A stretch of 64,000 nucleotides of DNA from an uncultured bacterium (GTDB lineage Bacteria; Nitrospirota; JACRHL01), in NCBI GenBank assembly GCA_965371175.1, contig CBDUXI010000005.1, positions 14,548-78,547 on the forward strand. Reading direction: 5' to 3'. The notes beneath the pieces are model-generated. The model was not told the DNA's origin and did not search any database. It worked only from the letters and a program-made list of their open reading frames with translations. Within the stretch, counting starts at the first letter, position 1, and every line of letters begins with the position of its first letter. This document shows, piece after piece, positions 7,324 through 40,039 of the stretch. The position numbers and the translations under genes are program-made.

Positions 7324-8705
7324 TAACTACCTCCGCTTTTGGCCTTGGGCCGGTCTTCGCCCACATGCGCGAGAATGGTGTCCAGCATCTCTTTGGCCAG
7401 TTTTTTGATTTCGGCCTCGTTTTGCCCTTCCAGCATCACCCGCACCAGCGGCTCGGTGCCGGAATAGCGCACTAAAATGCGGCCGTCGTCCCCCAGTTTG
7501 TCTTCGATGGCCTGTTGGCAGGCGGCCACTTCCGGGATGCTGTCCAGATCCACCCGTTCGGAAACCCGTCCGCCGATCAGCACCTGGGGCAGGGGGGTCA
7601 TGCAGTCGGTCATTTTGGACAGGGTGCTGTTAGCGCGCCGCATAAAGTAGGCCACCTGCAGGGCGGTAAGCAGGCCGTCGCCGGTGAGGTTGTGCTCTAA
7701 AAAGATGATGTGCCCGGACTGTTCGCCGCCGAAGGTGAACCCTTCGGAGAGCATGCGCTCCAGCACGTACCGGTCGCCCACCTGGGTGCGGACGGTGTCG
7801 ATGCCATGCTCTTTCATGGCCAACTCCAGCCCCAGATTGCTCATGACCGTGGTGACCAGGGTGTTTTTGGCCAGTCGCCCGTCATTTTTGAGCTCGATGG
7901 CGCACATGGCCATGATGCGGTCGCCGTCGATCAGGTTGCCGTTCTCGTCGGCAAACAGCACCCGGTCGGCATCGCCGTCGTGGGCCAGGCCAAAGTGGGC
8001 ACCGTGTTCCACCACCGCTGCCTGCATCAATTCCGGGTGCAGACAGCCGCAGCCGGCGTTGATGTTGGTGCCGTTGGGCTTGACCCCCAGGGGAATCACC
8101 TCGGCCCCCAACTCTTCAAAGACGATGGGCGATACCCGATAGGCCGCGCCGTGGCCGCAGTCCACCACGACCTTGAGGCCGGAAAAGTCGAACCCCTTGG
8201 GCAGGCTGGCCTTGACGAATTCGATGTAGCGGCCCACCGAGTCTTCAATCTTGCTCACCTTGCCGATGTCGGTGGCGGTGGGGCGGATGGCGTCGATCTC
8301 GCCGGAAAAGATCAGCCGTTCGATCTCCCGTTCCATGTGGTCGGGCAGCTTAAGGCCGTCGCGGGAGAAAAATTTGATGCCGTTGTCTTCGTAGGAATTG
8401 TGGGAGGCGGAAATCACCACCCCGGCGTCGGCCCGCATGCTTTTGGTAATCACCGAAATGGCCGGGGTGGGCATGGGACCCACCAGATTCACGTCCACCC
8501 CCATGGAGCAGATGCCGGAGGTGAGGGCGGATTCCAGCATATAGCCGGACAGACGGGTGTCCTTGCCGATGACGATTTTGTGGCGACCGTCCCGGTTTTT
8601 AAACAGGTGCGCGATGGCCCGGCCCAGCTTCAGGGCCATTTCGCTGGTCATCGGGTCGACATTCGCGACACCGCGAATGCCGTCGGTTCCAAACAGTTTG
8701 CGCAA
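7323..8705 (-). CDS. glmM: Phosphoglucosamine mutase
   Basis: 460 aa with [15 protein letters not shown] and the phosphoserine loop [15 protein letters not shown]. Confidence 0.95.
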
Positions 8706-8733
8706 GGTGGGGGAGGCTCCTTGTCAGGACGTA

Positions 8734-9396
8734 CTACGGCTTATCTTCCAAGGTAATCGTAACATATGCGTGCAATTCTTCCGTGACCTCCAGATCGCGA
8801 CCGCCCAGATCCAGCCGTACTTCCCGGCGTTGGGACTGGTGGATGCCGGTCACATCCACCGGCTGGGTACGCAATCGGGACAGCCCCTTGAATGCGCTTT
8901 TTGCGCCGGTGAGCGTCACCTCTTGCGGCGCTACCGTAATTCCGGCGATTCTTTTTCCCGCTGCCGGTTTTCCCGTGATGTCGGCCACCAGCCGCACGGC
9001 GCGGGTTTCCCTGGGCTCAATACGCACCCGCACCTGCCGGGGGGTCACCCCGGTAATGTCCACCGGGCGGGAAACCTCGATATCGGGAGAACCCAACGTG
9101 ATCCACTGTTCCCCCGGCGTGCTTTGGGACAGATCGAGATAGGCGTGAATGTGGTGCGTGGTAATCAGGGCCAGGGTGTTTTCCCTTGCAGTAATGCGCA
9201 CGTCGGCGGTTTCGGCGTTGATGTCGACAAGCACCAGATCGGGGGACAGCCCCACCGGCTCGATCGGCACGGCAAAGTTGACGGTAATCTGCCCCTGGGA
9301 ATTCACATACAGCCACACGGCGAACGCCAGCGCCACCGACATAAACTTGAGCCCCAGATTGCGCCGCCACCACGCGGTTTCGTGCTGCCGTTTCAT
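8734..9396 (-). CDS. cdaR: YbbR-domain protein, CdaA regulator CdaR
   Basis: It has an N-terminal membrane anchor NLGLKFMSVALAFAVWLYV followed by repeated beta-rich YbbR-like modules. It sits between cdaA and glmM. I trimmed it to the ATG at 9396, which overlaps the cdaA stop (ATGA). Confidence 0.7.
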   Translation of the reverse strand: MKRQHETAWWRRNLGLKFMSVALAFAVWLYVNSQGQITVNFAVPIEPVGLSPDLVLVDINAETADVRITARENTLALITTHHIHAYLDLSQSTPGEQWITLGSPDIEVSRPVDITGVTPRQVRVRIEPRETRAVRLVADITGKPAAGKRIAGITVAPQEVTLTGAKSAFKGLSRLRTQPVDVTGIHQSQRREVRLDLGGRDLEVTEELHAYVTITLEDKP

Positions 9397-10223
9397 CGGG
9401 CGGCCCTTTTGCCGGTGCGTCCGCGCAGGCGGGACAGCCACACCTTGCCGCTCCCTTGCGGCAGTGCTCCGGCATTGGTAAACAGGGAGGCCAGCTTTTT
9501 ACGCAGGGCGGTGCCGTCCAGATTGGCCGAAATGCGCCCGCCTTCGGCAATGACGATGCGCCCGGTCTCTTCACTGATGACCAGCGCCACCGCGTCGGTC
9601 TCTTCGGTCAGCCCCACGGCGGCCCGGTGGCGGGTGCCCAGGGAGGCGTCCTTGACCCGCAGGGCAATGGGCAAAAAGCAGCCCGCAGCCAGCACCCGCC
9701 CCTGATGCAGGATGACCGCGCCGTCGTGAATGGGCGAGGTGGGGTGAAAGACGGCCAGCAGCACATCCTTGGAGACCACCGCATCCAGCCGGGTGCCCAC
9801 CTCGACAATATCGGCCAGATCGGTTTCCCGTTCCAGCACGATGATGCCGCCCATGCGGCGACTGGCCATGGCCACCGCTGCGCGCACCACCTCGTCGATG
9901 GATTTGGACTCTTCCATGACCGTCAGCAGGCGCGAGAACGGGTTTTTGCCAAACTGGGCCAGGGTGCGGCGGATTTCCGGGGCAAACAGGATGATCAGGG
10001 CCAGCACGATTTGCGACCAGAAGCTGGTGACGATCCAGTCCAGGGTAAACAGCCCCAGTTGCTTGGCGGTGACCAGCACCACCAGCAGCAGGCCGATGCC
10101 GAATACCATCTGCAACGCCCGGGTACCCTTGATGATCAGGAGTATCCGGTAAAAGATAAAACTGACCAGCAGGATGTCGAGCAAATCCTGGGGGAAGCGG
10201 AATGCCTGCAGGGTTTGCAGCAT
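9393..10223 (-). CDS. cdaA: Diadenylate cyclase CdaA (three TM helices plus DAC domain)
   Basis: Trimmed to MLQTLQAFRF (ATG at 10223, sharing 1 nt with the folP stop). DAC motifs are HDGAVIL and GTRHRAAVGLTEETDAVALVISEETG. Confidence 0.88.
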   Translation of the reverse strand: MLQTLQAFRFPQDLLDILLVSFIFYRILLIIKGTRALQMVFGIGLLLVVLVTAKQLGLFTLDWIVTSFWSQIVLALIILFAPEIRRTLAQFGKNPFSRLLTVMEESKSIDEVVRAAVAMASRRMGGIIVLERETDLADIVEVGTRLDAVVSKDVLLAVFHPTSPIHDGAVILHQGRVLAAGCFLPIALRVKDASLGTRHRAAVGLTEETDAVALVISEETGRIVIAEGGRISANLDGTALRKKLASLFTNAGALPQGSGKVWLSRLRGRTGKRAAR

Positions 10224-11167
10224 CAGGCGGTGCGAATGGCGTCGATCATGCGGGTAACGTGGGTCATCTCTTGCACGGCATGCACCCGCACCATGCGGGC
10301 GCCGTGGGCGGCGGCCCAGGCCACGGTGGCGGCGGTGCCCCATTCCCGTGCGTCTACCGGGGCGCCATCCAGCACATGGCCGATGAACGACTTGCGGGAG
10401 GTGCCCACCACAACGGGCAGCCCCAGGTCGGTCAAACGGGCAAGCCCCTTGAGCAGGCGCAGGTTGTGGGCCACGCTCTTGCCAAAGCCGATGCCCGGAT
10501 CCACGGCAATGGCCTCTCTGTGGATGCCCGCGGCGACGGCCACGCGGATGCGCGCGGCCAGATAGCCTGTCACCTCACCCACCACGCTGCCGTAATCCGG
10601 GTTGTTCTGCATGCTGCGGGGAGCGCCCTGCATGTGCATGAGGATCACCGGCACGGTTAGACCGGCCACGGTTTCGGCCATTCTCTCATCCAGCGTCAGG
10701 GCAGAAATATCGTTGACGGCGTTTGCCCCTGCGGCCACGGCGGAGATGGCCACGGCCGCCTTGCTGGTATCGATGCTGATGGGGGTGGTGATACCCCGTG
10801 CGCGGATGCCGGAGATGACGGGAATTACCCGGTCGATCTCGTCTGCTTGCGTCACGGGTTCTGCCCCCGGACGGGTGGATTCACCGCCCACGTCGAGCAT
10901 ATCCGCCCCGGCGGCCACCAGCGCCGCCGCGTGGGCGACGGCCTGATCTACAGAAAAGAACCGGCCCCCGTCCGAAAACGAATCGGGGGTGACGTTGACC
11001 ACCCCCATGACGGCGGTTTTGCCCGCCGGCAACAGGTCGGTCCATGTGATGTTCCGGGTGATGTTCCGGGCAGCGGCGGGTGGGAGCGGTGCGGGCATGG
11101 AGCCCCGCGCCGTATGGTCGGGCGGGTGGGGTGCGGGAGGCCGGATGGGGGTCCGGGAGTCTGTCAT
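10223..11167 (-). CDS. folP: Dihydropteroate synthase
   Basis: Motifs are VMGVVNVTPDSFSDGGRF and GADMLDVGGESTRPG. The start is uncertain: 11167, or the internal ATG at 11098. Confidence 0.9.
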   Translation of the reverse strand: MTDSRTPIRPPAPHPPDHTARGSMPAPLPPAAARNITRNITWTDLLPAGKTAVMGVVNVTPDSFSDGGRFFSVDQAVAHAAALVAAGADMLDVGGESTRPGAEPVTQADEIDRVIPVISGIRARGITTPISIDTSKAAVAISAVAAGANAVNDISALTLDERMAETVAGLTVPVILMHMQGAPRSMQNNPDYGSVVGEVTGYLAARIRVAVAAGIHREAIAVDPGIGFGKSVAHNLRLLKGLARLTDLGLPVVVGTSRKSFIGHVLDGAPVDAREWGTAATVAWAAAHGARMVRVHAVQEMTHVTRMIDAIRTA

Positions 11168-32049: not shown

Positions 32050-32188
32050 ATGTGTACCATTCGGGGCATGGGCAGACACCTGACGGAAGGACACACCTCC
32101 CGTGTCGTAGAGCGCATGACCTCTAACCTATTTGCAGAGCTTTAGTTCTCCCGTACTAGCAAAGCCTTCTATTTTCACCGGAACCAAA

Positions 32189-34396
32189 ATGAGCACGAAG
32201 AAAGCACTCACCGTCGAACGCAAAGGTGGAAAAATTTATAGCCATGTGCGTAGAAAGTGGCTTCACGAAACACCTGAAGAGACCGTTCGTCGGGAATACC
32301 TATGCGTCCTAGTTAATGAATACGGTTTCAGCCTAGACCAAATTGACGAAGAGCTTGAAGTCACCGGACGGGGCTCTGGGAACGCCCGAGCCGATCTCGT
32401 CATCTGGCGCACAGAAAAGGACAAAGCCGAATCAAAAAATCCGATTATCATCGTTGAGTGCAAGTCGGATAGCGTCACGATCAAGCCTGACGACTACGGC
32501 CAGGGTGATAACTACTCTCGCCTCGCAGGAGCCCGCTTCTTTGTCACCCACAATAGCCGCGAGACGAAGTACTGGCGTGTGGTGCACGATAAAATGCCAA
32601 AATCTCTGGAGGAAATCAGTAATATCCCCCACGCTGACGCAAGCGACAAGGAAATTGAAAAACTCATCTCCGAACTCAAGGTTTTCAAGGAAGAAGAGTT
32701 TGCGGACCTGCTTCATAAATGCCATAACGTCATTCGAAACCGCGAAAAGCTCGACCCAGCCGCCGCTTTTGATGAAATCGCAAAAATCCTATTCGTGAAA
32801 GTCTTTGTAGAGCGCGAACTTAGCGCGAAACGCCAACGTGAAAACCTCTTCAATACCAAATATCTTGATAGCCAGCTCAGCAAACACCCACTTAACTTGC
32901 TCTTCACGAACACCAAGGAAGCCTACGAAGATGACAAGATTTTTGAGCCTGGTGAGGAAATCCGACTAAGGCCGGCCACTGGAAGGGAAATTGTCAAGCT
33001 ACTGGAACGCTACAACCTTTCTGACACCAGTGAGGACATCAAAGGCATTGCCTTCGAGCGCTTCCTGGGTCGCACTTTCCGAGGTGAGATAGGACAATTC
33101 TTCACTCCGCGCACAATCGTAGAGTTCATGATTCGCATGATTGATCCCAAGGAAGGTGACATCATTTGTGACCCGGCCAGCGGGTCTGGTGGGTTCCTCA
33201 TCCGATTTTTTGAGATCGTCCGCGAACAGATCCACTCGGAGACCGATGCCGAGTATCGGGAGTTCAAGGCCAAGCTTGAGGCAAAAAAGCTACCTGACAC
33301 AGAGCAAGCGGATGCCCTACGGGAAAAGTTCGCTGAGATTCAAGAGACGCTAAACCAGCGGAAGCGCGGATCACGCTTATGGAATCTCGCCAACCGATGC
33401 ATCTACGGCACCGACGCCAACGACCGCATGGCGCGCACTAGCAAGATGAATATGATCATGCACGGCGACGGCCACGCTGGGGTTCACCACCACGACGGAT
33501 TCCTGAATGTGAACGGAATCTTTGAAGGCCGCTTTGACGTTATTCTCACCAATCCGCCCTTCGGTGCAAACGTCGAACCTTCCGATGTTGTGCATGAATC
33601 AGATGTAATGACCGACCGATCCGCGGAGCGGCGCTACACTGAGGTGTATGGAGACCTTTACACCGAAGCACTTGCGCAGGTACGCGCCACCATAAACAAG
33701 CCTATTGCCAGCCTGTTCACACTGCCTAAGAACAAAAAGAGCAAGGTCAAAACGGAAATCCTCTTTATTGAACGCTGCCTTTCTCTGCTCAAGCCTGGTG
33801 GCCGCCTCGGCATCGTTCTACCTGAGGGCATCTTCAACAATCCCTCCCTCACTTATGTTCGGGAGTTCTGTGAGAATCGCGCCTTCATTCGTTCTGTGGT
33901 CAGCTTGCCGCAGGAGACTTTCTTGTCCTCTGGTGCAAGCGTGAAAGCCTCGTTGCTCTTCCTGCAAAAGTTCTCAATTGATGAGCAGGCCGACTTCGAT
34001 GCCAAGCACGCAAATTCCCATTCCAAGATAAAGGCAAGATACGTCGACGAAATCGCCAATGAAACCCAACGAATGAAGGATGAAATCGCCAGCAGCAGGG
34101 AAGCTCGTGACACTGAGCATCGAAAGGCCCTACAAAAAAAGCTCAAGGACTACGAGAGGCACATGGCTGATACCATCGCCACAGAGACCCGAGCGTTACT
34201 CAAGAGACGGTTCCCGTATCCCACCTTCCTCTATGAGGCTGAGAAAGTTGGCATCTCCGCCACAGGAGAAGCAGATCAAAATGAACTAATCCCGAACAAC
34301 GATCTTCCTGCAAGCGTTGCCAAGAGCTGTCTTGAGCTTTATCAAGAGTTCAGGCTCAATCCGAAGCCCTTTTTCCTTCCGGACGCAGCTCAATGA
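32189..34396 (+). CDS. hsdM: Type I-like N6-adenine DNA methyltransferase (HsdM-like) with N-terminal PD-(D/E)xK (HsdR-N-like) domain
   Basis: The AdoMet motif is ICDPASGSGGFLI and the catalytic motif is ILTNPPFG (NPPF at 33551-33562). The N-terminal ~130 aa carry RADLVIW ... IIIVECK. The ATG at 32189 is preferred to the track's TTG at 32132. Confidence 0.85.
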   Translation: MSTKKALTVERKGGKIYSHVRRKWLHETPEETVRREYLCVLVNEYGFSLDQIDEELEVTGRGSGNARADLVIWRTEKDKAESKNPIIIVECKSDSVTIKPDDYGQGDNYSRLAGARFFVTHNSRETKYWRVVHDKMPKSLEEISNIPHADASDKEIEKLISELKVFKEEEFADLLHKCHNVIRNREKLDPAAAFDEIAKILFVKVFVERELSAKRQRENLFNTKYLDSQLSKHPLNLLFTNTKEAYEDDKIFEPGEEIRLRPATGREIVKLLERYNLSDTSEDIKGIAFERFLGRTFRGEIGQFFTPRTIVEFMIRMIDPKEGDIICDPASGSGGFLIRFFEIVREQIHSETDAEYREFKAKLEAKKLPDTEQADALREKFAEIQETLNQRKRGSRLWNLANRCIYGTDANDRMARTSKMNMIMHGDGHAGVHHHDGFLNVNGIFEGRFDVILTNPPFGANVEPSDVVHESDVMTDRSAERRYTEVYGDLYTEALAQVRATINKPIASLFTLPKNKKSKVKTEILFIERCLSLLKPGGRLGIVLPEGIFNNPSLTYVREFCENRAFIRSVVSLPQETFLSSGASVKASLLFLQKFSIDEQADFDAKHANSHSKIKARYVDEIANETQRMKDEIASSREARDTEHRKALQKKLKDYERHMADTIATETRALLKRRFPYPTFLYEAEKVGISATGEADQNELIPNNDLPASVAKSCLELYQEFRLNPKPFFLPDAAQ

Positions 34397-35778
34397 CGGT
34401 GGAGCAGGTTACCTTTCCAAAGGCCTTTGCTGTCTGGTTCAAGGATTTGGAACGTTGGGATGCCCCCAGCTTTCACCGAATAACTTGGCATTGGCCGAAA
34501 GAGGTCATGATGCCTATCGGAGGCACCGTCCTGCTTAGAAAGGAGCGAGTTGATAAAGTAGCATTCAAATTTTCTGACCTGCAGCCCCTCACGATTCATT
34601 TTGACGGTTCCGTCGAAAAACGGATGGTCGATGAGGCTCGCGAATACACGATGGACTTATGGTTTGCACGCCCTGGAGATATCGTGGTCTCTAAAATCGA
34701 CTTAAAAAATGGGGCTGTGGGTATTATTCCGCCTGATTGGAATAATGTTGTCGTAACCGGGCACTTCGCAGTTTATAAGCCAGACCTAACTAAGCTCGTG
34801 CCTGAGTACCTTCACCGCATAATCCAGGCTGATTTTTTTAAAGCGCATCTATGGCGAAATAAGGTCGGCGCAGAGGGTCGCAAGGAAGTGAAACTCGATT
34901 TCTTCGAGAAGGAGAATATTCCACTTCCACCACTCGCCGAGCAAAACACCATCGTCGATCGTTGGCGCAAGGCAAAGGATGAAATTAATGATGCCCTCGA
35001 ACGCGTGGAAAAGCACAAGAATGAGATCGATACTCGCTTCTTCGATAACTTGGGCTTGAAGTCGCCGGGCACAGTCTCCATGCCGAAAGCCCTCGCGGTC
35101 TGGTGGGAAGATCTTCTTCGCTGGGGTGTCCGGTTCAATCAGTTGAACCAAAGCGGTGCTGACATCACGCAAGGCAAATATCCAGTGGCGGAACTCGACT
35201 CAGTCTTAGAACTCGTGCAATACGGTACCAGTGAAAAGGCTAACACCAAAGGAGAGGGAGTTCCGGTTCTGAGAATCGGCAACATTAAAGATCGCGCAGT
35301 AGACTTTTCTCGCTTGAAGCACATCCCGCTACCGAAAAAAACACTTGAAAGATTGCTATTACAAGACGGCGATATCCTTATCATTCGAACAAGTGGCAGC
35401 CGTGGCTTGGTAGGAACGTGTGCAGTATTTCGAGGCGAAGGCGATTACATCTTCGCATCCTACCTCATCCGCCTGCGTGTCAATCCAGCCAAGGCGAGCC
35501 CCGAATTCCTCTCCTGGTTTCTAAATTCACCCTTGGGCCGCCAGCAAGTGGATGCTGTGAGCCGCCAAATCATGCAGAGCAACATCAACAGCCAGGAATT
35601 GCGCAGTCTAAAAGTTCCGCTCCCCCCGCTGACCGAGCAAAACAAAATAATGGCGCGAGTCGCTACTGGTCGTTCCAAAATTGCTCGTGAACGCGAAGCT
35701 TCCGAAAACCTTGCCAAAGAGATCAACGCAGAAGTCGAAGCGTTAATTCTAGGCACAAAATCACTCCAGGACGCATAG
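34393..35778 (+). CDS. hsdS: Type I restriction-modification specificity subunit with two dissimilar target-recognition domains
   Basis: 461 aa. Two conserved spacer helices are present: PLPPLAEQNTIVDRWRKAKDEINDALERVEKHKNEID and PLPPLTEQNKIMARVATGRSKIAREREASENLAKEIN. The start overlaps the hsdM stop (ATGA). Confidence 0.85.
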   Translation: MTVEQVTFPKAFAVWFKDLERWDAPSFHRITWHWPKEVMMPIGGTVLLRKERVDKVAFKFSDLQPLTIHFDGSVEKRMVDEAREYTMDLWFARPGDIVVSKIDLKNGAVGIIPPDWNNVVVTGHFAVYKPDLTKLVPEYLHRIIQADFFKAHLWRNKVGAEGRKEVKLDFFEKENIPLPPLAEQNTIVDRWRKAKDEINDALERVEKHKNEIDTRFFDNLGLKSPGTVSMPKALAVWWEDLLRWGVRFNQLNQSGADITQGKYPVAELDSVLELVQYGTSEKANTKGEGVPVLRIGNIKDRAVDFSRLKHIPLPKKTLERLLLQDGDILIIRTSGSRGLVGTCAVFRGEGDYIFASYLIRLRVNPAKASPEFLSWFLNSPLGRQQVDAVSRQIMQSNINSQELRSLKVPLPPLTEQNKIMARVATGRSKIAREREASENLAKEINAEVEALILGTKSLQDA

Positions 35779-35779
35779 C

Positions 35780-37366
35780 ATGGCGAAAAGTGCCCGCTAT
35801 CTATCGTTAGAAGGCCAGTTTTCAAACAGTGTACTCGGCACTTTCCGTATCATTCGGGGATTCGCCAATCTCCAGGACCTCGCGAAAATTTCGGTTCCTT
35901 ATGAGATGGAAAATGGTGGTAATGGCGCAGAAGTCAAAGGCCAGCAACGCCAACTCGACCTCCCGCACGCAAAACGAATCAAGAGCTACTTAGAGGGTGG
36001 AGACCAGCGATTCCTGCCGGAAGTAATCTTATCAATTCGTACGGACATAGGTGAGGAAGTAAACAAGGAGCAGAAGCCTATTGGAGTCATAAGCTTTGGC
36101 AATGACGGCATTACAATATCGCGAGCATGGAAAAATGAAAGCATGCGGATTCACCGTGTCACTATTGATTGTGAAATGCTCGATGAGATCCGGGAAAACA
36201 AACTTATTCGCCGTGTAGATGGAAATCACCGATTGGCAATGGCCCATATGCTGGAAGAAGACCCGAGCCTGCCCACTAAGTACCTTGCGCCGTTTTGCCT
36301 CGTACTTCTTGGCCCCCCGGAGGAAGCGGCAGACGACTATTCCGAATCACTAATCTTCCACACCATCAACAGTACGGCACTTCCCCTAGAATCAGAGCAT
36401 GCGCTGAAACTTATCCTCGGTCAGGATGCTGGCTACAGCATGGCGCCAGATATGGAATTCGCCTCTAGCCCGGACTTACACTTCACTCGCCTCCTTCGGG
36501 ATGGCTTGCTACAACTTCCGGCTCCTGTGCAATCTCGCATTGGCAACCAACCATTGACGAGCTTGCATGGAGCCGTGCAAGGGTTGCTGGACATTGACCC
36601 CACCGTCGCAGCAGATTTGACAACCTTAAATACTTATTCAACGAATCTATTGGCTGCACTCAATGATATTGTCACGCGACTGGAGCCAAAACAGACTTTG
36701 CTTTGCAATGCCGAGCTTTTCATTGAACTAGCAGCTCGCGTCTGGAAAACAACCCCAGAGAGTGACGATCACAACACCCGAGTGAATGCAGCTGTTGTCT
36801 ATTTGGAACAGCTTGCCGCCTGGCTTGGAAAAGACGGACTGGTAGATCTGAAAGAGGGGAGCTCATTGAGCAAGCAAATACTGGATGTCTATTCCACTGT
36901 GCGCACTCGGATTCCGAAAAAGGTCTTCCTCGCCCGATGGTATCCCAGGGCGGAGGACGGAGAGGAGTTAACGAAGGCAGACCTGCGGCTCGGTCAAATC
37001 CGCCAGGTACTGGCGGATATTGAGACCGATGAGGGTGTGAACCTTGAGCTTAAGGACTTGGGCACTCAGACAGGTGCAACGTTCCCAATCCATACTGAGA
37101 TGTACGACGCCATTGCTTCTGCCGATATCATCCTCATTGACTTAACCGGTTTGCGTCCCAACGTCTGCATAGAAGCGGGCTATGCCCTGCGGAATCACGA
37201 AAAGAACCGGCTCATTTTTATCTTTCAGCCGAACGGTGACCACGCCGAGGTTCCCTTTGACCTGAACACATATCGCTACGAGCTTTTCAATGACACCGGG
37301 GAAATCCCTGGCAAGATAAAGCCACACATCATGACAATTCTGCGTGGGGCTGCGGTTGGCACTTGA
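35780..37366 (+). CDS. Uncharacterised fusion protein: ParB/DndB (DGQHR)-like N-domain, helical middle, TIR-like / nucleoside 2-deoxyribosyltransferase-like C-domain
   Basis: 528 aa; the ATG lies 1 nt after the hsdS TAG. N-domain motifs are KGQQRQLDLPHAKRIKSYL (aa 53-71), FLPEVILSI, RRVDGNHRLAMA (DGNHR at 36218-36232) and FHTINSTALPL. The C-domain (aa ~379-525) reads KKVFLARWYP ... MYDAIASADIILIDLTGLRPNVCIEAGYALRNHEKNRLIFIF, with the conserved Glu at 37172-37174. Domain calls are by eye only. Confidence 0.6.
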   Translation: MAKSARYLSLEGQFSNSVLGTFRIIRGFANLQDLAKISVPYEMENGGNGAEVKGQQRQLDLPHAKRIKSYLEGGDQRFLPEVILSIRTDIGEEVNKEQKPIGVISFGNDGITISRAWKNESMRIHRVTIDCEMLDEIRENKLIRRVDGNHRLAMAHMLEEDPSLPTKYLAPFCLVLLGPPEEAADDYSESLIFHTINSTALPLESEHALKLILGQDAGYSMAPDMEFASSPDLHFTRLLRDGLLQLPAPVQSRIGNQPLTSLHGAVQGLLDIDPTVAADLTTLNTYSTNLLAALNDIVTRLEPKQTLLCNAELFIELAARVWKTTPESDDHNTRVNAAVVYLEQLAAWLGKDGLVDLKEGSSLSKQILDVYSTVRTRIPKKVFLARWYPRAEDGEELTKADLRLGQIRQVLADIETDEGVNLELKDLGTQTGATFPIHTEMYDAIASADIILIDLTGLRPNVCIEAGYALRNHEKNRLIFIFQPNGDHAEVPFDLNTYRYELFNDTGEIPGKIKPHIMTILRGAAVGT

Positions 37367-37403: not shown

Positions 37404-38153
37404 CTAGTCCAATCCAGCTAGTCCATCGGCATCAAACTCCAGCAGGTCATGCGGAGTTCTCTCAATTCCAATTCCATGCTCAACGAGCAGGGAAATCAGG
37501 CTCTCACCGTCCATCAAGCCTACCGGTGTGGCGTCTGAACGCTGAGCTTCATCCTTTGCCTGCTTGGTAAATGCGCTGGTGGTGACAATCAACCCCTGAT
37601 CGTGCGCCCCCAAGCTGCCGCGCATCTGTTGAACCACCGGCGCACCTACGTTTGCTTTCCAGCGTTTGGCCTGAACGGCCATGCGGGTACGCACCACGTC
37701 CCCAACCACCAGGGTACCGCGAGCATCGATTCCCCCATCGGCGGATACCTTGGTGACTTCCACCCCTTCAAAGCCCATCACGACCAGTAACCGCCCCACC
37801 AGTTCTTCAAACTCCTTGGGTGAAAGGGCCTGTACCGCCTCCGCCAACACCTTTCGGACGCCCGCATTATGTTTGGCAATCTGCCCTTCCAGCCCGATCA
37901 GCCGTTTTGCAGACAGTCCGATCATCCCCTTGGGCTGCCGATCAAACCGAAGTGGCGCCCCACGCCTGTTCCGCCTCTGATTCTCCTCGTAGATAGACAC
38001 ATACATTGTGTCACCAGGAGTCTGCCCCTTGGTCCGAATCAAGCCCAGCTCCAAGGCCATATTCGTGATTGCCTTGTAGTGCATTGGCTCACCGCCTGCA
38101 TGGTCCCGCAGGACCACTTCGGCAGCATCGGTGAAGGAAAGTGGGTTACCCAT
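37404..38153 (-). CDS. mrr: Mrr-family (type IV-like) restriction endonuclease with N-terminal HARE-HTH domain
   Basis: 249 aa. The N-terminus LSFTDAAEVVLRDHAGGEPMHYKAITNMALELGLI is HARE-HTH-like. The C-terminus FEELVGRLLVVMGFEGVEVTKVSADGGIDARG...MAVQAKRW carries the Mrr catalytic core D...QxK. Confidence 0.8.
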   Translation of the reverse strand: MGNPLSFTDAAEVVLRDHAGGEPMHYKAITNMALELGLIRTKGQTPGDTMYVSIYEENQRRNRRGAPLRFDRQPKGMIGLSAKRLIGLEGQIAKHNAGVRKVLAEAVQALSPKEFEELVGRLLVVMGFEGVEVTKVSADGGIDARGTLVVGDVVRTRMAVQAKRWKANVGAPVVQQMRGSLGAHDQGLIVTTSAFTKQAKDEAQRSDATPVGLMDGESLISLLVEHGIGIERTPHDLLEFDADGLAGLD

Positions 38154-38376: not shown

Positions 38377-38416
38377 TAAAAAAGTAGGCCGGGGCACCCG
38401 CCCGAGCGCCCCGGCC
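38377..38416 (-). terminator. Rho-independent terminator downstream of the SARP-like regulator gene
   Basis: The minus strand reads GGCCGGGGC-12 nt loop-GCCCCGGCC followed by TACTTTTTT. Confidence 0.6.
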
Positions 38417-38545
38417 CGTCGGCGGTTGGCGTATGCGGGGAATGGCCCCCGATACGGGTGACCACCAACCCCCCATCAATCGGGGGACCATACCGCAAGA
38501 CGGTTTACTAATTAATTACTGCGGCGGCATATCTGCCGACAAAGA

Positions 38546-40039
38546 TCAGCCGTTTTGAATCCGTGCATAAATCGCCTTGGTGGCAGCCGCCGGGGCAAGC
38601 CCCAGCGCTTCGTCCAGCGCCGTGCGGCAGCGCTGATATGCGCTGGCGGCCTCGGTTCTGCGGCCCTGCTCCAGGCAGGCGGTCATGAGCCCCTGATGGA
38701 ACGGCTCGGCCAGATGGTCTGCGGCAAGCCCCTGCCGGTTGATCGCCTCCACCTGCGTCCAATCCCCCTTAGCCGCATACGCTTCAGACAGGTGCATCAG
38801 GTGGCGCACATACAGCCCGCGCAACCGGCTGCGGGTGTCCAGCACCCAGGAGGGGTCGCCCGTGGCAGCCAGAAACGGCCCCTCATAAAGCCCGATGGTG
38901 GGCTCCATCCGGATGGGATCAGCGGTGATGTTGGCGTCGTTCAGACGTCTTTCGAACGCCCAGGCATCCACCCACACACGATCCGGGTTCAGCCGCAACC
39001 AGCCGTGTTTGCGCGTTATGCAGGCATCGCAACGGATCAGCACACGCAGCCGGTGCAGGGTGGTCGCCAGCACGCGCAGCCCCGCATCGCCTTCCGCATC
39101 GGGCCACAGGGCGTCGATGACCTGTGCTTCGGGCAGCCCCTGCTCGCCCGCAGAGATCAGCAGTTTCAAAAGTTCCAGCGGCTTTTTTTGCGCTTTTCTG
39201 GCCTGGACCAACGGGCCGTCACGGGTGATGACTTCAAACGGTCCCAGGGTGCGGACCCGCACCGGCCACTGATCGCCCGAAATATCGTCCGGATGCCTGT
39301 TTTCCAGAGGCTCGGACAACTCGCCCATGGCAGAAAAATAGTCGGCCAGCGCCCGGCGCACGGCCATGGTGCAGCGCCCCGCAGGCTGGGTGCGGGCCAG
39401 CATCCAGGAAAACCCGGCCACCCAGCCGCCACTGGCCGCATGCATACGGGAAATCGTGAGGGCGGACAGGTCGGAGCGGCCCGCAGTGGTGGCAATTTGT
39501 GTGGCCTCTGGCAAGGTGAGTTGCAACTGGCTCCAGCCGATCACGGCCATCTTCACCGGCGTTTTTGCGACAGGTTTGGGCGGCGCAGCCCGGCTGATCA
39601 GCAAAAAACGCACGCCGGGCGGGGCGGAGTTGATCTTTTTAAACAGGGTGGCAATCGTTTTGGGGACGATCCGTTGCAGGTCGTCGATGACCACGGTGAG
39701 CACTTTGCCGTCTGCCTGCGGCCCGAATGCGGCATCCAGGTCGGCTTTCCATGTGTGCGGGTCTGCCGGAACCCACCGGCACGGGTGAGGGTGGGATTGC
39801 AGATACCGTGCAGCCAGTAGCGTTTTGCCTGATCCGGGTGGCCCTTCCAGCCATACAATAGACGGTTCTTGAGGCGGCCTTCCCGTCCGCTCGAACGCCC
39901 GGTCGAGCGCGCTATGCAGCCGCTCCCGGCGCACCGTTGCGGCAGCAGATGGTGGCCCGTGCACGTTGCCTTGCACAGCCGCCCGGTGGTTGTCCCCCAT
40001 GCGTTCCATCCCCCCTCGCTCTGGCCGCTGATCCCCCAT
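38546..40039 (-). CDS. P-loop ATPase fused to a SARP-type regulator (OmpR-like winged helix plus BTAD)
   Basis: 497 aa. The Walker A is LEGPPGSGKT. The wHTH region is VRVRTLGPFEVITRDG...LWPDAEGDAGLRVLATTLHRLR. The BTAD is VDAWAFERRL...LYEGPFLA...EPFHQGLMTACLEQGRRTEAASAYQRCRTALDEALG. The exact start is uncertain. Confidence 0.75.
   Translation of the reverse strand: MGDQRPERGGMERMGDNHRAAVQGNVHGPPSAAATVRRERLHSALDRAFERTGRPPQEPSIVWLEGPPGSGKTLLAARYLQSHPHPCRWVPADPHTWKADLDAAFGPQADGKVLTVVIDDLQRIVPKTIATLFKKINSAPPGVRFLLISRAAPPKPVAKTPVKMAVIGWSQLQLTLPEATQIATTAGRSDLSALTISRMHAASGGWVAGFSWMLARTQPAGRCTMAVRRALADYFSAMGELSEPLENRHPDDISGDQWPVRVRTLGPFEVITRDGPLVQARKAQKKPLELLKLLISAGEQGLPEAQVIDALWPDAEGDAGLRVLATTLHRLRVLIRCDACITRKHGWLRLNPDRVWVDAWAFERRLNDANITADPIRMEPTIGLYEGPFLAATGDPSWVLDTRSRLRGLYVRHLMHLSEAYAAKGDWTQVEAINRQGLAADHLAEPFHQGLMTACLEQGRRTEAASAYQRCRTALDEALGLAPAAATKAIYARIQNG

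Follow-up and report, generated by a model that had tools for sequence, protein, structure and literature searches.

Does a protein encoded immediately behind the methyltransferase and specificity genes of a restriction-modification (RM) operon act in place of the HsdR motor-nuclease of type I systems, or does it have another role? The question is raised by three adjacent forward-strand genes, M, S and X, in a 64-kb window (the whole stretch of DNA that was analysed, 64,000 nucleotides of contig CBDUXI010000005.1 from an uncultured Nitrospirota bacterium). M (32132..34396) is an RM subunit with an N-terminal PD-(D/E)xK nuclease and a gamma-class N6-adenine methyltransferase domain, as assigned from Pfam, PADLOC and Protein Data Bank (PDB) matches; S (34393..35778) is a specificity subunit with two target-recognition domains (Pfam Methylase_S, PADLOC Specificity_I); and X (35780..37366) is an accessory protein of 528 amino acids (aa), delimited from the open reading frame (ORF) list, homologue searches and an AlphaFold2 model. 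A first-pass annotation had placed X "in the HsdR slot" of a type I-like operon. From the sequences compared here, X appears instead to be a widespread, uncharacterised family, strictly bound to RM systems and with two conserved sites of catalytic type.

We identified 540 matches to the X family in a 90% identity collection, and 437 representatives at 50% identity, nearly all of them either full-length (approximately 490-540 aa) or fragments. A survey of one genome per species returned 79 X loci, distributed across the Pseudomonadota, Desulfobacterota, Acidobacteriota, Nitrospirota, Planctomycetota, Verrucomicrobiota, Bacteroidota, Gemmatimonadota, Synergistota, Cyanobacteria/Melainabacteria and Bacillota, with further loci in a bacterium of the Candidate Phyla Radiation and in one Methanomicrobiales archaeon, so that the family spans more than 10 phyla. 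Its cultured hosts include Bradyrhizobium sediminis, Desulfobulbus rhabdoformis DSM 8777, Rhodobacter lacus KCTC 15478 and Rhodobacteraceae HTCC2083. Linkage of the homologues to methyltransferase and specificity genes, which the first-pass annotation had set beforehand as a test of its proposal, proved to be complete: an RM module lay directly upstream of X, on the same strand, in all 68 of the informative loci, defined as those in which X is full-length and the available sequence reaches at least 3.5 kb upstream.

These RM modules resolve into two classes. In class A (62/68), a subunit of approximately 610-960 aa that combines an HSDR_N_2 nuclease with an N6_Mtase domain is followed by S and then by X; this class includes Firmicute versions in which M is only 27-31% identical, with the Pfam architecture unchanged. 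In class B (6/68; L058, L061, L064, L083, L085 and L086, from Lachnospiraceae, Dethiobacter, Gastranaerophilaceae and Eubacteriales), X is preceded by a full classical type I operon, consisting of HsdM (HsdM_N and N6_Mtase), HsdS and an EcoR124-type HsdR of 1007-1059 aa with a SWI2/SNF2 motor. Among the relatives, HsdR was found only in class B loci, whose X proteins form one subclade (61-78% mutual identity) inside the Firmicute cluster.

The coupling between X and the gene upstream of it is tight. The gap from the upstream stop codon to the X start did not exceed 29 nt at 58 of the 61 non-redundant junctions, and was most commonly a single nucleotide (21 cases) and next a 4-nt overlap (7 cases). 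In the window, the stop codon of M and the start codon of S share the sequence ATGA (caATGAcg), and the TAG stop of S is separated by one base from the ATG of X (gcaTAGcATGgcg), with no terminator-like site or hairpin found between M, S and X. No solo full-length X was found among the surveyed loci. Searches with tblastn returned nothing from a phage collection and, from plasmids, only a short ParB-motif match within one methylase gene; X is therefore not, as far as these sequences indicate, a typical phage or plasmid gene.

Three pieces matching only the C-terminal part of X (L055:8019-8546, L063:7998-8567 and L056:7731-8885; 45-72% identical) were found outside RM contexts, beside DUF4143 ATPase, AbiEi-like and RhuM genes. 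We considered and rejected a stand-alone effector family, as these pieces look like truncated copies beside unrelated genes, and are probably remnants in defence islands. We additionally observed a RadC/UPF0758 (JAB-like) gene directly upstream of M, on the same strand, in 24 of the fetched loci (L002-L008, L010, L015, L017, L024-L026, L029, L031, L033, L046, L057, L059, L062, L065, L069, L081 and L087), giving a four-gene RadC-M-S-X arrangement. The window has no RadC/UPF0758 gene, and rimO lies directly upstream of M. In one distant locus, L163, X (8108-9589) apparently sits between M and an S-like match (9712-10272), against the usual position after S.

Strict linkage of X to RM genes does not extend in the other direction. 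In a metagenome scan with the M alignment, followed by tblastn, we identified 11 loci in which close M and S pairs lack X (M 54-68% identical to the window M; only loci with the M nuclease domain present and at least 3 kb of downstream sequence were counted), while five or six loci of the same scan contained it. The position after S in the loci without X held nothing co-directional, unrelated genes of unknown function, or members of other families, namely a family of approximately 215 aa, a DUF1016/YhcG-type nuclease and an HD-domain protein. We further identified X subfamilies that are shuffled among M lineages and RM types: an X of the L057 type is approximately 30% identical to the window X, yet the adjoining M is 64-69% identical. 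The common partner of X must therefore be the generic M/S core. Nor does X follow the target sequence: S identity drops to 20-30% where that of X stays at 45-75%. Because close M and S pairs occur without X, and class B X follows a complete HsdMSR, we conclude from these comparisons that X does not replace HsdR but is an optional accessory, one of the cassettes that occupy a variable slot in an RM unit that is itself autonomous.

Two of the other occupants of this slot deserve description. The approximately 215-aa family, seen after S at L115:5476-6129 and L128:9588-10226 (57% mutual identity), has a hydrophobic C-terminal segment and no Pfam match, and may be, to judge by sequence, a different accessory effector used by this RM family, one that acts at the membrane. 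A DUF1016/YhcG PD-(D/E)xK nuclease gene follows S at L024:6953-7999, where it lies between S and X, and at L123:10050-11093, the latter assigned from sequence resemblance only.

What X is added to is probably a complete restriction enzyme. The first-pass annotation had noted the absence of an HsdR motor-nuclease and had reasoned that M2S1 alone can only methylate. The motor is indeed absent, with no helicase or superfamily 2 (SF2) motor ORF found in the M-S-X block by the ORF list and Pfam, but a nuclease is present, at the N-terminus of M itself (aa 48-166, 32273..32629, + strand; Pfam HSDR_N_2, 1.5e-21), ahead of the methyltransferase domain (N6_Mtase, 1.1e-33; PADLOC MTase_I PDLC03018, 2.5e-238). 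The catalytic D of this nuclease (32393-32395, RADLVI) and its E-C-K (32456-32464, IVECK) are retained, and of the 57 M homologues linked to X, 56 keep the D...E-x-K signature. Among solved structures, M is closest to the type IIB enzyme RM.BsaXI (8w0p, 1.2e-27), which ranks ahead of every HsdM, and the D and E-C-K of M align to BsaXI D90 and E105-x-K107. In BsaXI, E73, D90, E105 and K107 are essential or catalytic, and are conserved across type IIB enzymes (PMC11997821). The associated S subunit (461 aa) matches Pfam Methylase_S in two stretches (1.6e-18) and PADLOC Specificity_I (7.3e-71). Thus, with a conserved N-terminal nuclease and BsaXI as best solved relative, M and S are probably a motor-less, type IIB-like enzyme that restricts by itself, and the statement that they can only methylate is not supported for this locus.

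The M ORF comprises 754 aa counted from the TTG at 32132; its true start is probably the ATG at 32189, since the homologues align from about residue 20. Among the relatives, the M of L054 is the sole exception of the 57, its E-C-K reading Q-C-K, and may be a nuclease-dead variant that still keeps X. At L028:5103-7997, M and S are fused in one 964-aa chain directly before X, as in some type IIB enzymes.

The N-terminal part of X (aa 1-215, 35780..36424, + strand) was delimited from profiles, Foldseek and invariant residues as a ParB-Srx domain of the DGQHR/DndB type. It contains, in order, the motifs GQQRQL (54-59), FLPEVILSI, RRVDGNHR (144-151) and FHTINSTALPL, with key residues at QR 56-57, PE 80-81, DGNHR 147-151 (36218-36232) and FHTIN 193-197. 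DGQHR domains are defined by a QR pair, a nearly invariant DGQHR pentapeptide and FxxxN (PMC4619093). In alignments of 69 and of 26 diverse X sequences, Q56 and R57 are invariant, as are F193 and N197 of FxxxN, and the pentapeptide D147-G-N-H-R151 agrees with DGQHR at four of five positions, the change from Q to N being invariant family-wide. The window protein matches TIGR03187 over aa 31-206 at 1.1e-8 (35.2 bits, under the curated cut-off of 58.85), a dnd-associated DGQHR model at 1.9e-7 (likewise sub-cut-off) and Pfam DndB PF14072 at 15.4 bits (cut-off 29.1). Across the 26 diverse members, TIGR03187 was matched by all (E<=0.01, best 7.8e-12), Pfam DndB by 17 and DpdB by nine.

Structural comparisons used an AlphaFold2 model built with 67 homologues (mean predicted local distance difference test score, pLDDT, 82.1). 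The N-terminal and middle parts of this model matched, by Foldseek against BFVD, the GmrSD N-terminal domain (8e-4), a DndB-like protein (5.7e-3) and ParB (6e-3), with probabilities of 0.9-1.0, together with a weak match to ParB 7bnr in the PDB (E 0.04). The profiles and the model thus support a DGQHR/DndB-type ParB fold for the N-terminus of X. No helix-turn-helix (HTH) was detected in X by Pfam, including in the 26 diverse members. We additionally identified a 598-aa relative (P0200) with an N-terminal HARE-HTH, then a DGQHR-like region matching X aa 9-269, and then a different C-terminus of approximately 235 aa, an architecture that hints at a swappable effector end within the family. The plasmid match (NZ_CP109788.1, Leisingera thetidis, 329188-329415) covers X aa 141-220, from DGNHR to FHTIN, at 42% identity; as it lies inside a gene annotated as an N-6 DNA methylase, it would be a ParB/DGQHR-like module fused to a methyltransferase.

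An all-helical middle region (aa 216-375, 36425..36904, + strand), defined by DSSP of the AlphaFold2 model, is the least conserved part of X, and distant homologues match only the stretches on either side of it. The C-terminal domain (aa 376-528, 36905..37363, + strand), assigned to the nucleoside 2'-deoxyribosyltransferase (NDT)/DNPH1/TIR superfamily from PADLOC, Pfam and Foldseek, carries the motifs KVFLARWYP and DLTGLRPNVCIEAGYAL, the latter containing E465. The residues D454, N461, V462, E465 (37172-37174), G467, A469 and D494 are invariant, as is the arrangement D454...E465-A-G-Y-A in both the 69-sequence and the 26-sequence alignments, and both putative active sites of X remain invariant down to 27% identity. 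NDT, DNPH1 and the relatives among TIR NADases and TIR-STING cleave N-glycosidic bonds with a Glu. We take the D454...E465 arrangement to be equivalent to the NDT/DNPH1 motif, in which an Asp at a strand end is followed by a Glu nucleophile at the start of an E-x-G-x-A helix, and E465 is on sequence grounds the putative catalytic Glu.

The best sequence match of the window X is between its C-terminus and the PADLOC CBASS "Effector TIR" model (3.4e-8). Its match to the Pfam CAP12/Pycsar TIR family PF10137 (CAP12-PCTIR_TIR) is weak (0.036, 14.5 bits, under the cut-off of 24.7), this family being matched by seven of the 26 diverse members (best 1.9e-4); Pfam Nuc_deoxyrib_tr PF05014 was matched by 13 of the 26 (best 3.8e-5) and not by the window X. 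Sequence searches of X against the PDB, with the single sequence and with a 67-sequence profile, gave noise only. As a Foldseek search of the whole protein against the PDB was swamped by spurious multi-domain matches, we modelled aa 372-528 separately (pLDDT 85, predicted template modelling score 0.83). The top structural matches of this model were NDT (8pqq, 3.4e-4) and DNPH1 (TMt 0.65-0.73); it also matched a prokaryotic SEFIR domain (5y8e), TIR-STING (9lmq/7un8) and the MAL TIR domain (5uzb), at probabilities of 0.99-1.0, and a CAP12/Pycsar TIR protein in BFVD (2.4e-3). The C-terminus of X is therefore best placed, from profiles and predicted fold, in the NDT/DNPH1/TIR superfamily of Glu-dependent N-glycosidases, with TIR and NDT undistinguished by these comparisons. 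In both halves of X, the domain assignments of the first-pass annotation, a DGQHR/DndB-like ParB fold followed by a TIR-like or NDT-like domain with a conserved Glu, were thus borne out by profiles and fold comparison, and the ORF layout, operon, motifs and residue numbers that it gave (DGNHR 147-151, E465) are all present and correct.

We tentatively propose, with a confidence that falls just short of even for the model taken as a whole, that X is an RM-coupled, NTP/DNA-gated (NTP, nucleoside triphosphate) N-glycosidase serving as a back-up effector. The proposal builds on what we observed, namely the gene order and coupling, the domain folds, the invariant putative catalytic residues, the strict RM linkage and the optional nature of X; the physical contact between X and M2S, the trigger, the substrate and the suicidal outcome we infer. 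PrrC, in type Ic hsd loci, is a precedent for an RM-embedded suicide effector. In Ronin, the binding of Ocr or ArdA frees the toxin RonA from its restraint by HsdMS (bioRxiv 10.1101/2023.04.06.535777); in SspE, as outlined in PMC13251355, a ParB-like NTPase gates a C-terminal nuclease effector; and, for type I loci, fusions of a ParB-like with a toxin domain have been predicted to be programmed-cell-death modules (PMC3632139; PMC3710099).

Under our proposal, M and S would methylate self DNA and cut unmethylated DNA without an ATP motor. X would be kept inactive by association with the conserved M2S core, the gamma-methyltransferase/S core being the only element common to both kinds of RM system that X accompanies. 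Its ParB/DGQHR domain would be a sensor or switch that binds NTP and/or DNA, as in DndB, DpdB, SspE and GmrS. Activation might follow once restriction fails or is blocked, DNA-mimic anti-restriction proteins and a build-up of foreign DNA or DNA ends being examples of the cause, and NTP- or DNA-driven self-association of the ParB-like domain could then gather, or else free, the C-terminal domains. These, as N-glycosidases using Glu465, would hydrolyse NAD+ or (deoxy)nucleotides, leading to growth arrest or abortive infection. The nearest relatives of the C-terminus are by sequence the CBASS/Pycsar TIR NADase effectors and NDT, and by fold NDT, DNPH1 and TIR-STING.

The type IIB-like reading of M and S carries a caveat: the N-terminal alignment of M to BsaXI is weak (2.7 bits), though the Pfam HSDR_N_2 match is at 1.5e-21, and the REBASE-derived PADLOC models class M as a type I methyltransferase. 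Several points weigh against the proposal for X. The scores of X are below the cut-off for every named family, so the substrate would not be readable from homology. Among X members, matches to the NDT profile outnumber those to the TIR profile (13 vs 7), and some DGQHR proteins, DpdB among them, help in DNA base exchange; both points favour a DNA-directed activity. Finally, the strict co-occurrence with RM genes could reflect a need of X for the methylation mark rather than a protein complex.

The main rival is a DNA-directed X. X would here be a restriction glycosylase or base-exchange enzyme, in which the ParB/DGQHR NTPase loads or opens DNA and the NDT-like domain removes a base, either at unmethylated sites offered by M2S or, as a type IV-like complement, in phage DNA whose hypermodification lets it evade the RM enzyme. 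DNPH1 and MilB act on hydroxymethylated pyrimidine nucleotides, and NDT is both the most frequent C-terminal profile match (13/26) and, with DNPH1, the top structural match; the DpdB model, matched by 9/26, recalls DpdB serving the transglycosylase DpdA; the top BFVD matches of the N-terminal part are GmrSD-type modification-dependent nucleases; and an attack on DNA has been suggested for the NDT domains of Abi-like proteins (PMC3710099). Against this, X stays conserved across freely varying S specificities, its loci show no linked dpd, dnd or other genes for base biosynthesis, the best sequence match of the window X is a CBASS TIR NADase effector, and a conserved nuclease is already supplied by M. 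We consider a DNA-acting X unlikely, and slightly more so its narrower form, in which X, a ParB-type NTPase joined to an NDT-like transglycosylase or glycosylase, would be a "restriction glycosylase" module of type I/IIB systems, a single-chain analogue of DpdB plus DpdA, recruited by M2S or modified DNA, that excises or exchanges the bases of foreign DNA rather than acting on the backbone or NAD+.

The model of the first-pass annotation, in which M and S would do no more than mark self and X, standing in for HsdR, would be the only effector of a Ronin-like system without a nuclease, agrees with the lack of an SF2 motor gene in the block, with the tight coupling of X to S and with the precedent of Ronin, where HsdMS is paired with a toxin. 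We regard it as improbable, given the PD-(D/E)xK domain of M, with its catalytic residues in 56/57 homologues and its resemblance to type IIB RM enzymes, the presence of X after complete HsdMSR operons, and the frequency of M and S pairs without X. Equally doubtful is a regulatory X, a DndB-like, NTP-modulated modifier of the RM enzyme that would act, for instance, in restriction alleviation or establishment control. The optional, operon-final position of X is compatible with such a role, and DndB is reported in PMC4507180 (and discussed in PMC10853773) to be an ATP-modulated negative regulator of its modification operon; but a regulator leaves hard to explain why an invariant Glu-centred motif in a 150-aa enzyme domain is kept to 27% identity, and no HTH was detected in X. 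Defence genes cluster, and an unrelated Mrr-like gene adjoins the block, so X might in principle stand beside M and S by chance, as one of two independent defence genes in an island. Linkage in 68/68 loci across phyla, in the same order and strand and with 1-nt or overlapping junctions, and the failure to find a solo full-length X, effectively refute this explanation, to which we attach almost no probability.

The surroundings of the operon point to its origin. Across M, S and X, G+C is 0.50-0.51 and GC3 0.54-0.59; the flanking ligA, rimO, SARP-type regulator and valS genes have G+C of 0.62-0.65 and GC3 of 0.75-0.81. With its lower G+C, the M-S-X block has the look of an insert gained by horizontal transfer, with rimO on one side and a convergent Mrr-like gene on the other, so that the earlier description of a single, low-G+C, acquired operon stands, as judged by its junctions, the lack of a terminator and the G+C contrast. 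No tRNA genes or obvious att-type landmarks were found in the 64-kb window, and no sigma-70-like promoter within 31.8-38.6 kb.

The convergent gene (37404-38153, - strand) ends 37 nt past X and encodes a 249-aa HARE-HTH and Mrr_cat protein, matching the PADLOC candidate single-gene system PDC-S02 (4.5e-40) and type IV methyl-directed restriction endonuclease models; its G+C (0.575) lies between those of the block and the host. We rejected it as a fourth component, since an Mrr-like gene was seen, at variable positions, in the flanks of only four distinct relatives (L006/L010, on the same contig, L025 and L037), and since the window copy differs in G+C from M, S and X; it is probably one more defence gene, separate from the block, within a small island. 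Beyond it lies a gene of host-like G+C for a 497-aa AAA/STAND-like ATPase with a BTAD (SARP-type) regulator domain (38546-40039, - strand), followed on the minus strand by a strong, 14-bp, G+C-rich terminator-like hairpin (38386-38417).

RM systems are the commonest bacterial defence, and to our knowledge few back-ups that answer phage inhibition or evasion of RM have been described: PrrC, Ronin, PARIS and retrons. We found no description of the X family in full-text literature searches, and PADLOC v2 gave no model for X beyond the generic TIR match. The impression that the architecture is unnamed was in this sense right; RM-embedded suicide effectors (PrrC, Ronin) are nevertheless established, and fusions of ParB-like and toxin domains in type I loci had already been predicted (PMC3632139). 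If our proposal is true, X would be a new effector class in RM-linked immunity, a ParB-gated NDT/TIR N-glycosidase, bearing on whether ParB-type NTP switches can drive TIR/NDT activation. Knowledge of the family would also shed light on a common, little-studied group of motor-less RM systems of the nuclease-methyltransferase and S type that databases file as type I, and would offer a gain in annotation for proteins now labelled "hypothetical" or "DGQHR domain-containing" and missed by the PADLOC v2 defence models.

We compared X and its operon with known systems. Judged by the defining features of Dnd, Dpd, MADS, Ronin, PrrC/RloC, SspE/GmrSD and CBASS, X belongs to none of them. The MADS assignment was rejected on score (MAD2 286 bits vs a cut-off of 720, MAD5 48 vs 400), with no other mad genes detected, and classical type I RM was rejected for the window block, where the defining HsdR with its SF2 translocase is absent. 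The N-terminal 215 aa have DndB and DpdB as best profile matches, with the same motif order, but these proteins lack a C-terminal NDT/TIR-like domain, the X pentapeptide is DGNHR rather than DGQHR, and its scores fall under the family cut-offs; no dndCDE/dndA or dpdA/dpdC genes were found in the window or the related loci examined. SspE, GmrSD and BrxU (DUF262 ParB-like NTPase and DUF1524 HNH) share with X the motifs QR, DG(Q/N)(Q/H)R and FxxxN, the layout of a ParB-Srx domain gating a C-terminal effector, and the position of an accessory to DNA-modification-based defence. Their effector, in contrast, is an HNH nuclease acting on DNA, where X appears to carry an N-glycosidase-type domain, and their partners are phosphorothioation, BREX or none, whereas X is tied to N6-methyladenine methyltransferase/S modules. 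The C-terminus of X shares its fold, the beta-strand-Asp ... N-V-x-x-E-x-G-x-A motif and a catalytic-type Glu with CBASS/Pycsar TIR effectors (CAP12, TIR-STING) and with NDT, DNPH1 and MilB; X differs from the CBASS/Pycsar proteins in having no cyclic-nucleotide sensor domain, and its C-terminal identity is only 12-18%.

Similarly, M and S resemble the type IIB enzymes BcgI and BsaXI in their N-terminal PD-(D/E)xK nuclease and gamma N6-adenine methyltransferase, separate S with two target-recognition domains and lack of an ATPase, but none of the described type IIB enzymes includes a third subunit like X. Ronin likewise pairs a type I-like M/S with a tightly linked non-HsdR effector, which HsdMS restrains until anti-restriction proteins trigger cell death, and such an arrangement is in effect what had first been proposed for M-S-X. 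RonA is, however, a 61-aa membrane toxin unrelated to the soluble, two-domain, 528-aa X, and the Ronin HsdM is a decoy without a nuclease, whereas the window M keeps a conserved nuclease domain and X also occurs with full HsdMSR. The PrrC/EcoprrI and RloC systems, finally, have an effector gene in an RM operon and an N-terminal NTP-binding regulatory domain ahead of a C-terminal toxic enzyme domain, as would X, and the latency of PrrC through RM proteins and its activation when restriction is blocked are what we propose for X. PrrC is built from an ABC-ATPase-like domain and a HEPN tRNA nuclease, neither of which was matched in X by Pfam, NCBIfam or PADLOC, rather than from a ParB/DGQHR and an NDT/TIR-superfamily domain, and its partner is a classical type I system, where those of X are mostly motor-less nuclease-methyltransferase and S pairs. 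Thus, by analogy, X would work most like the RM-embedded suicide effectors, whose general logic has precedent.

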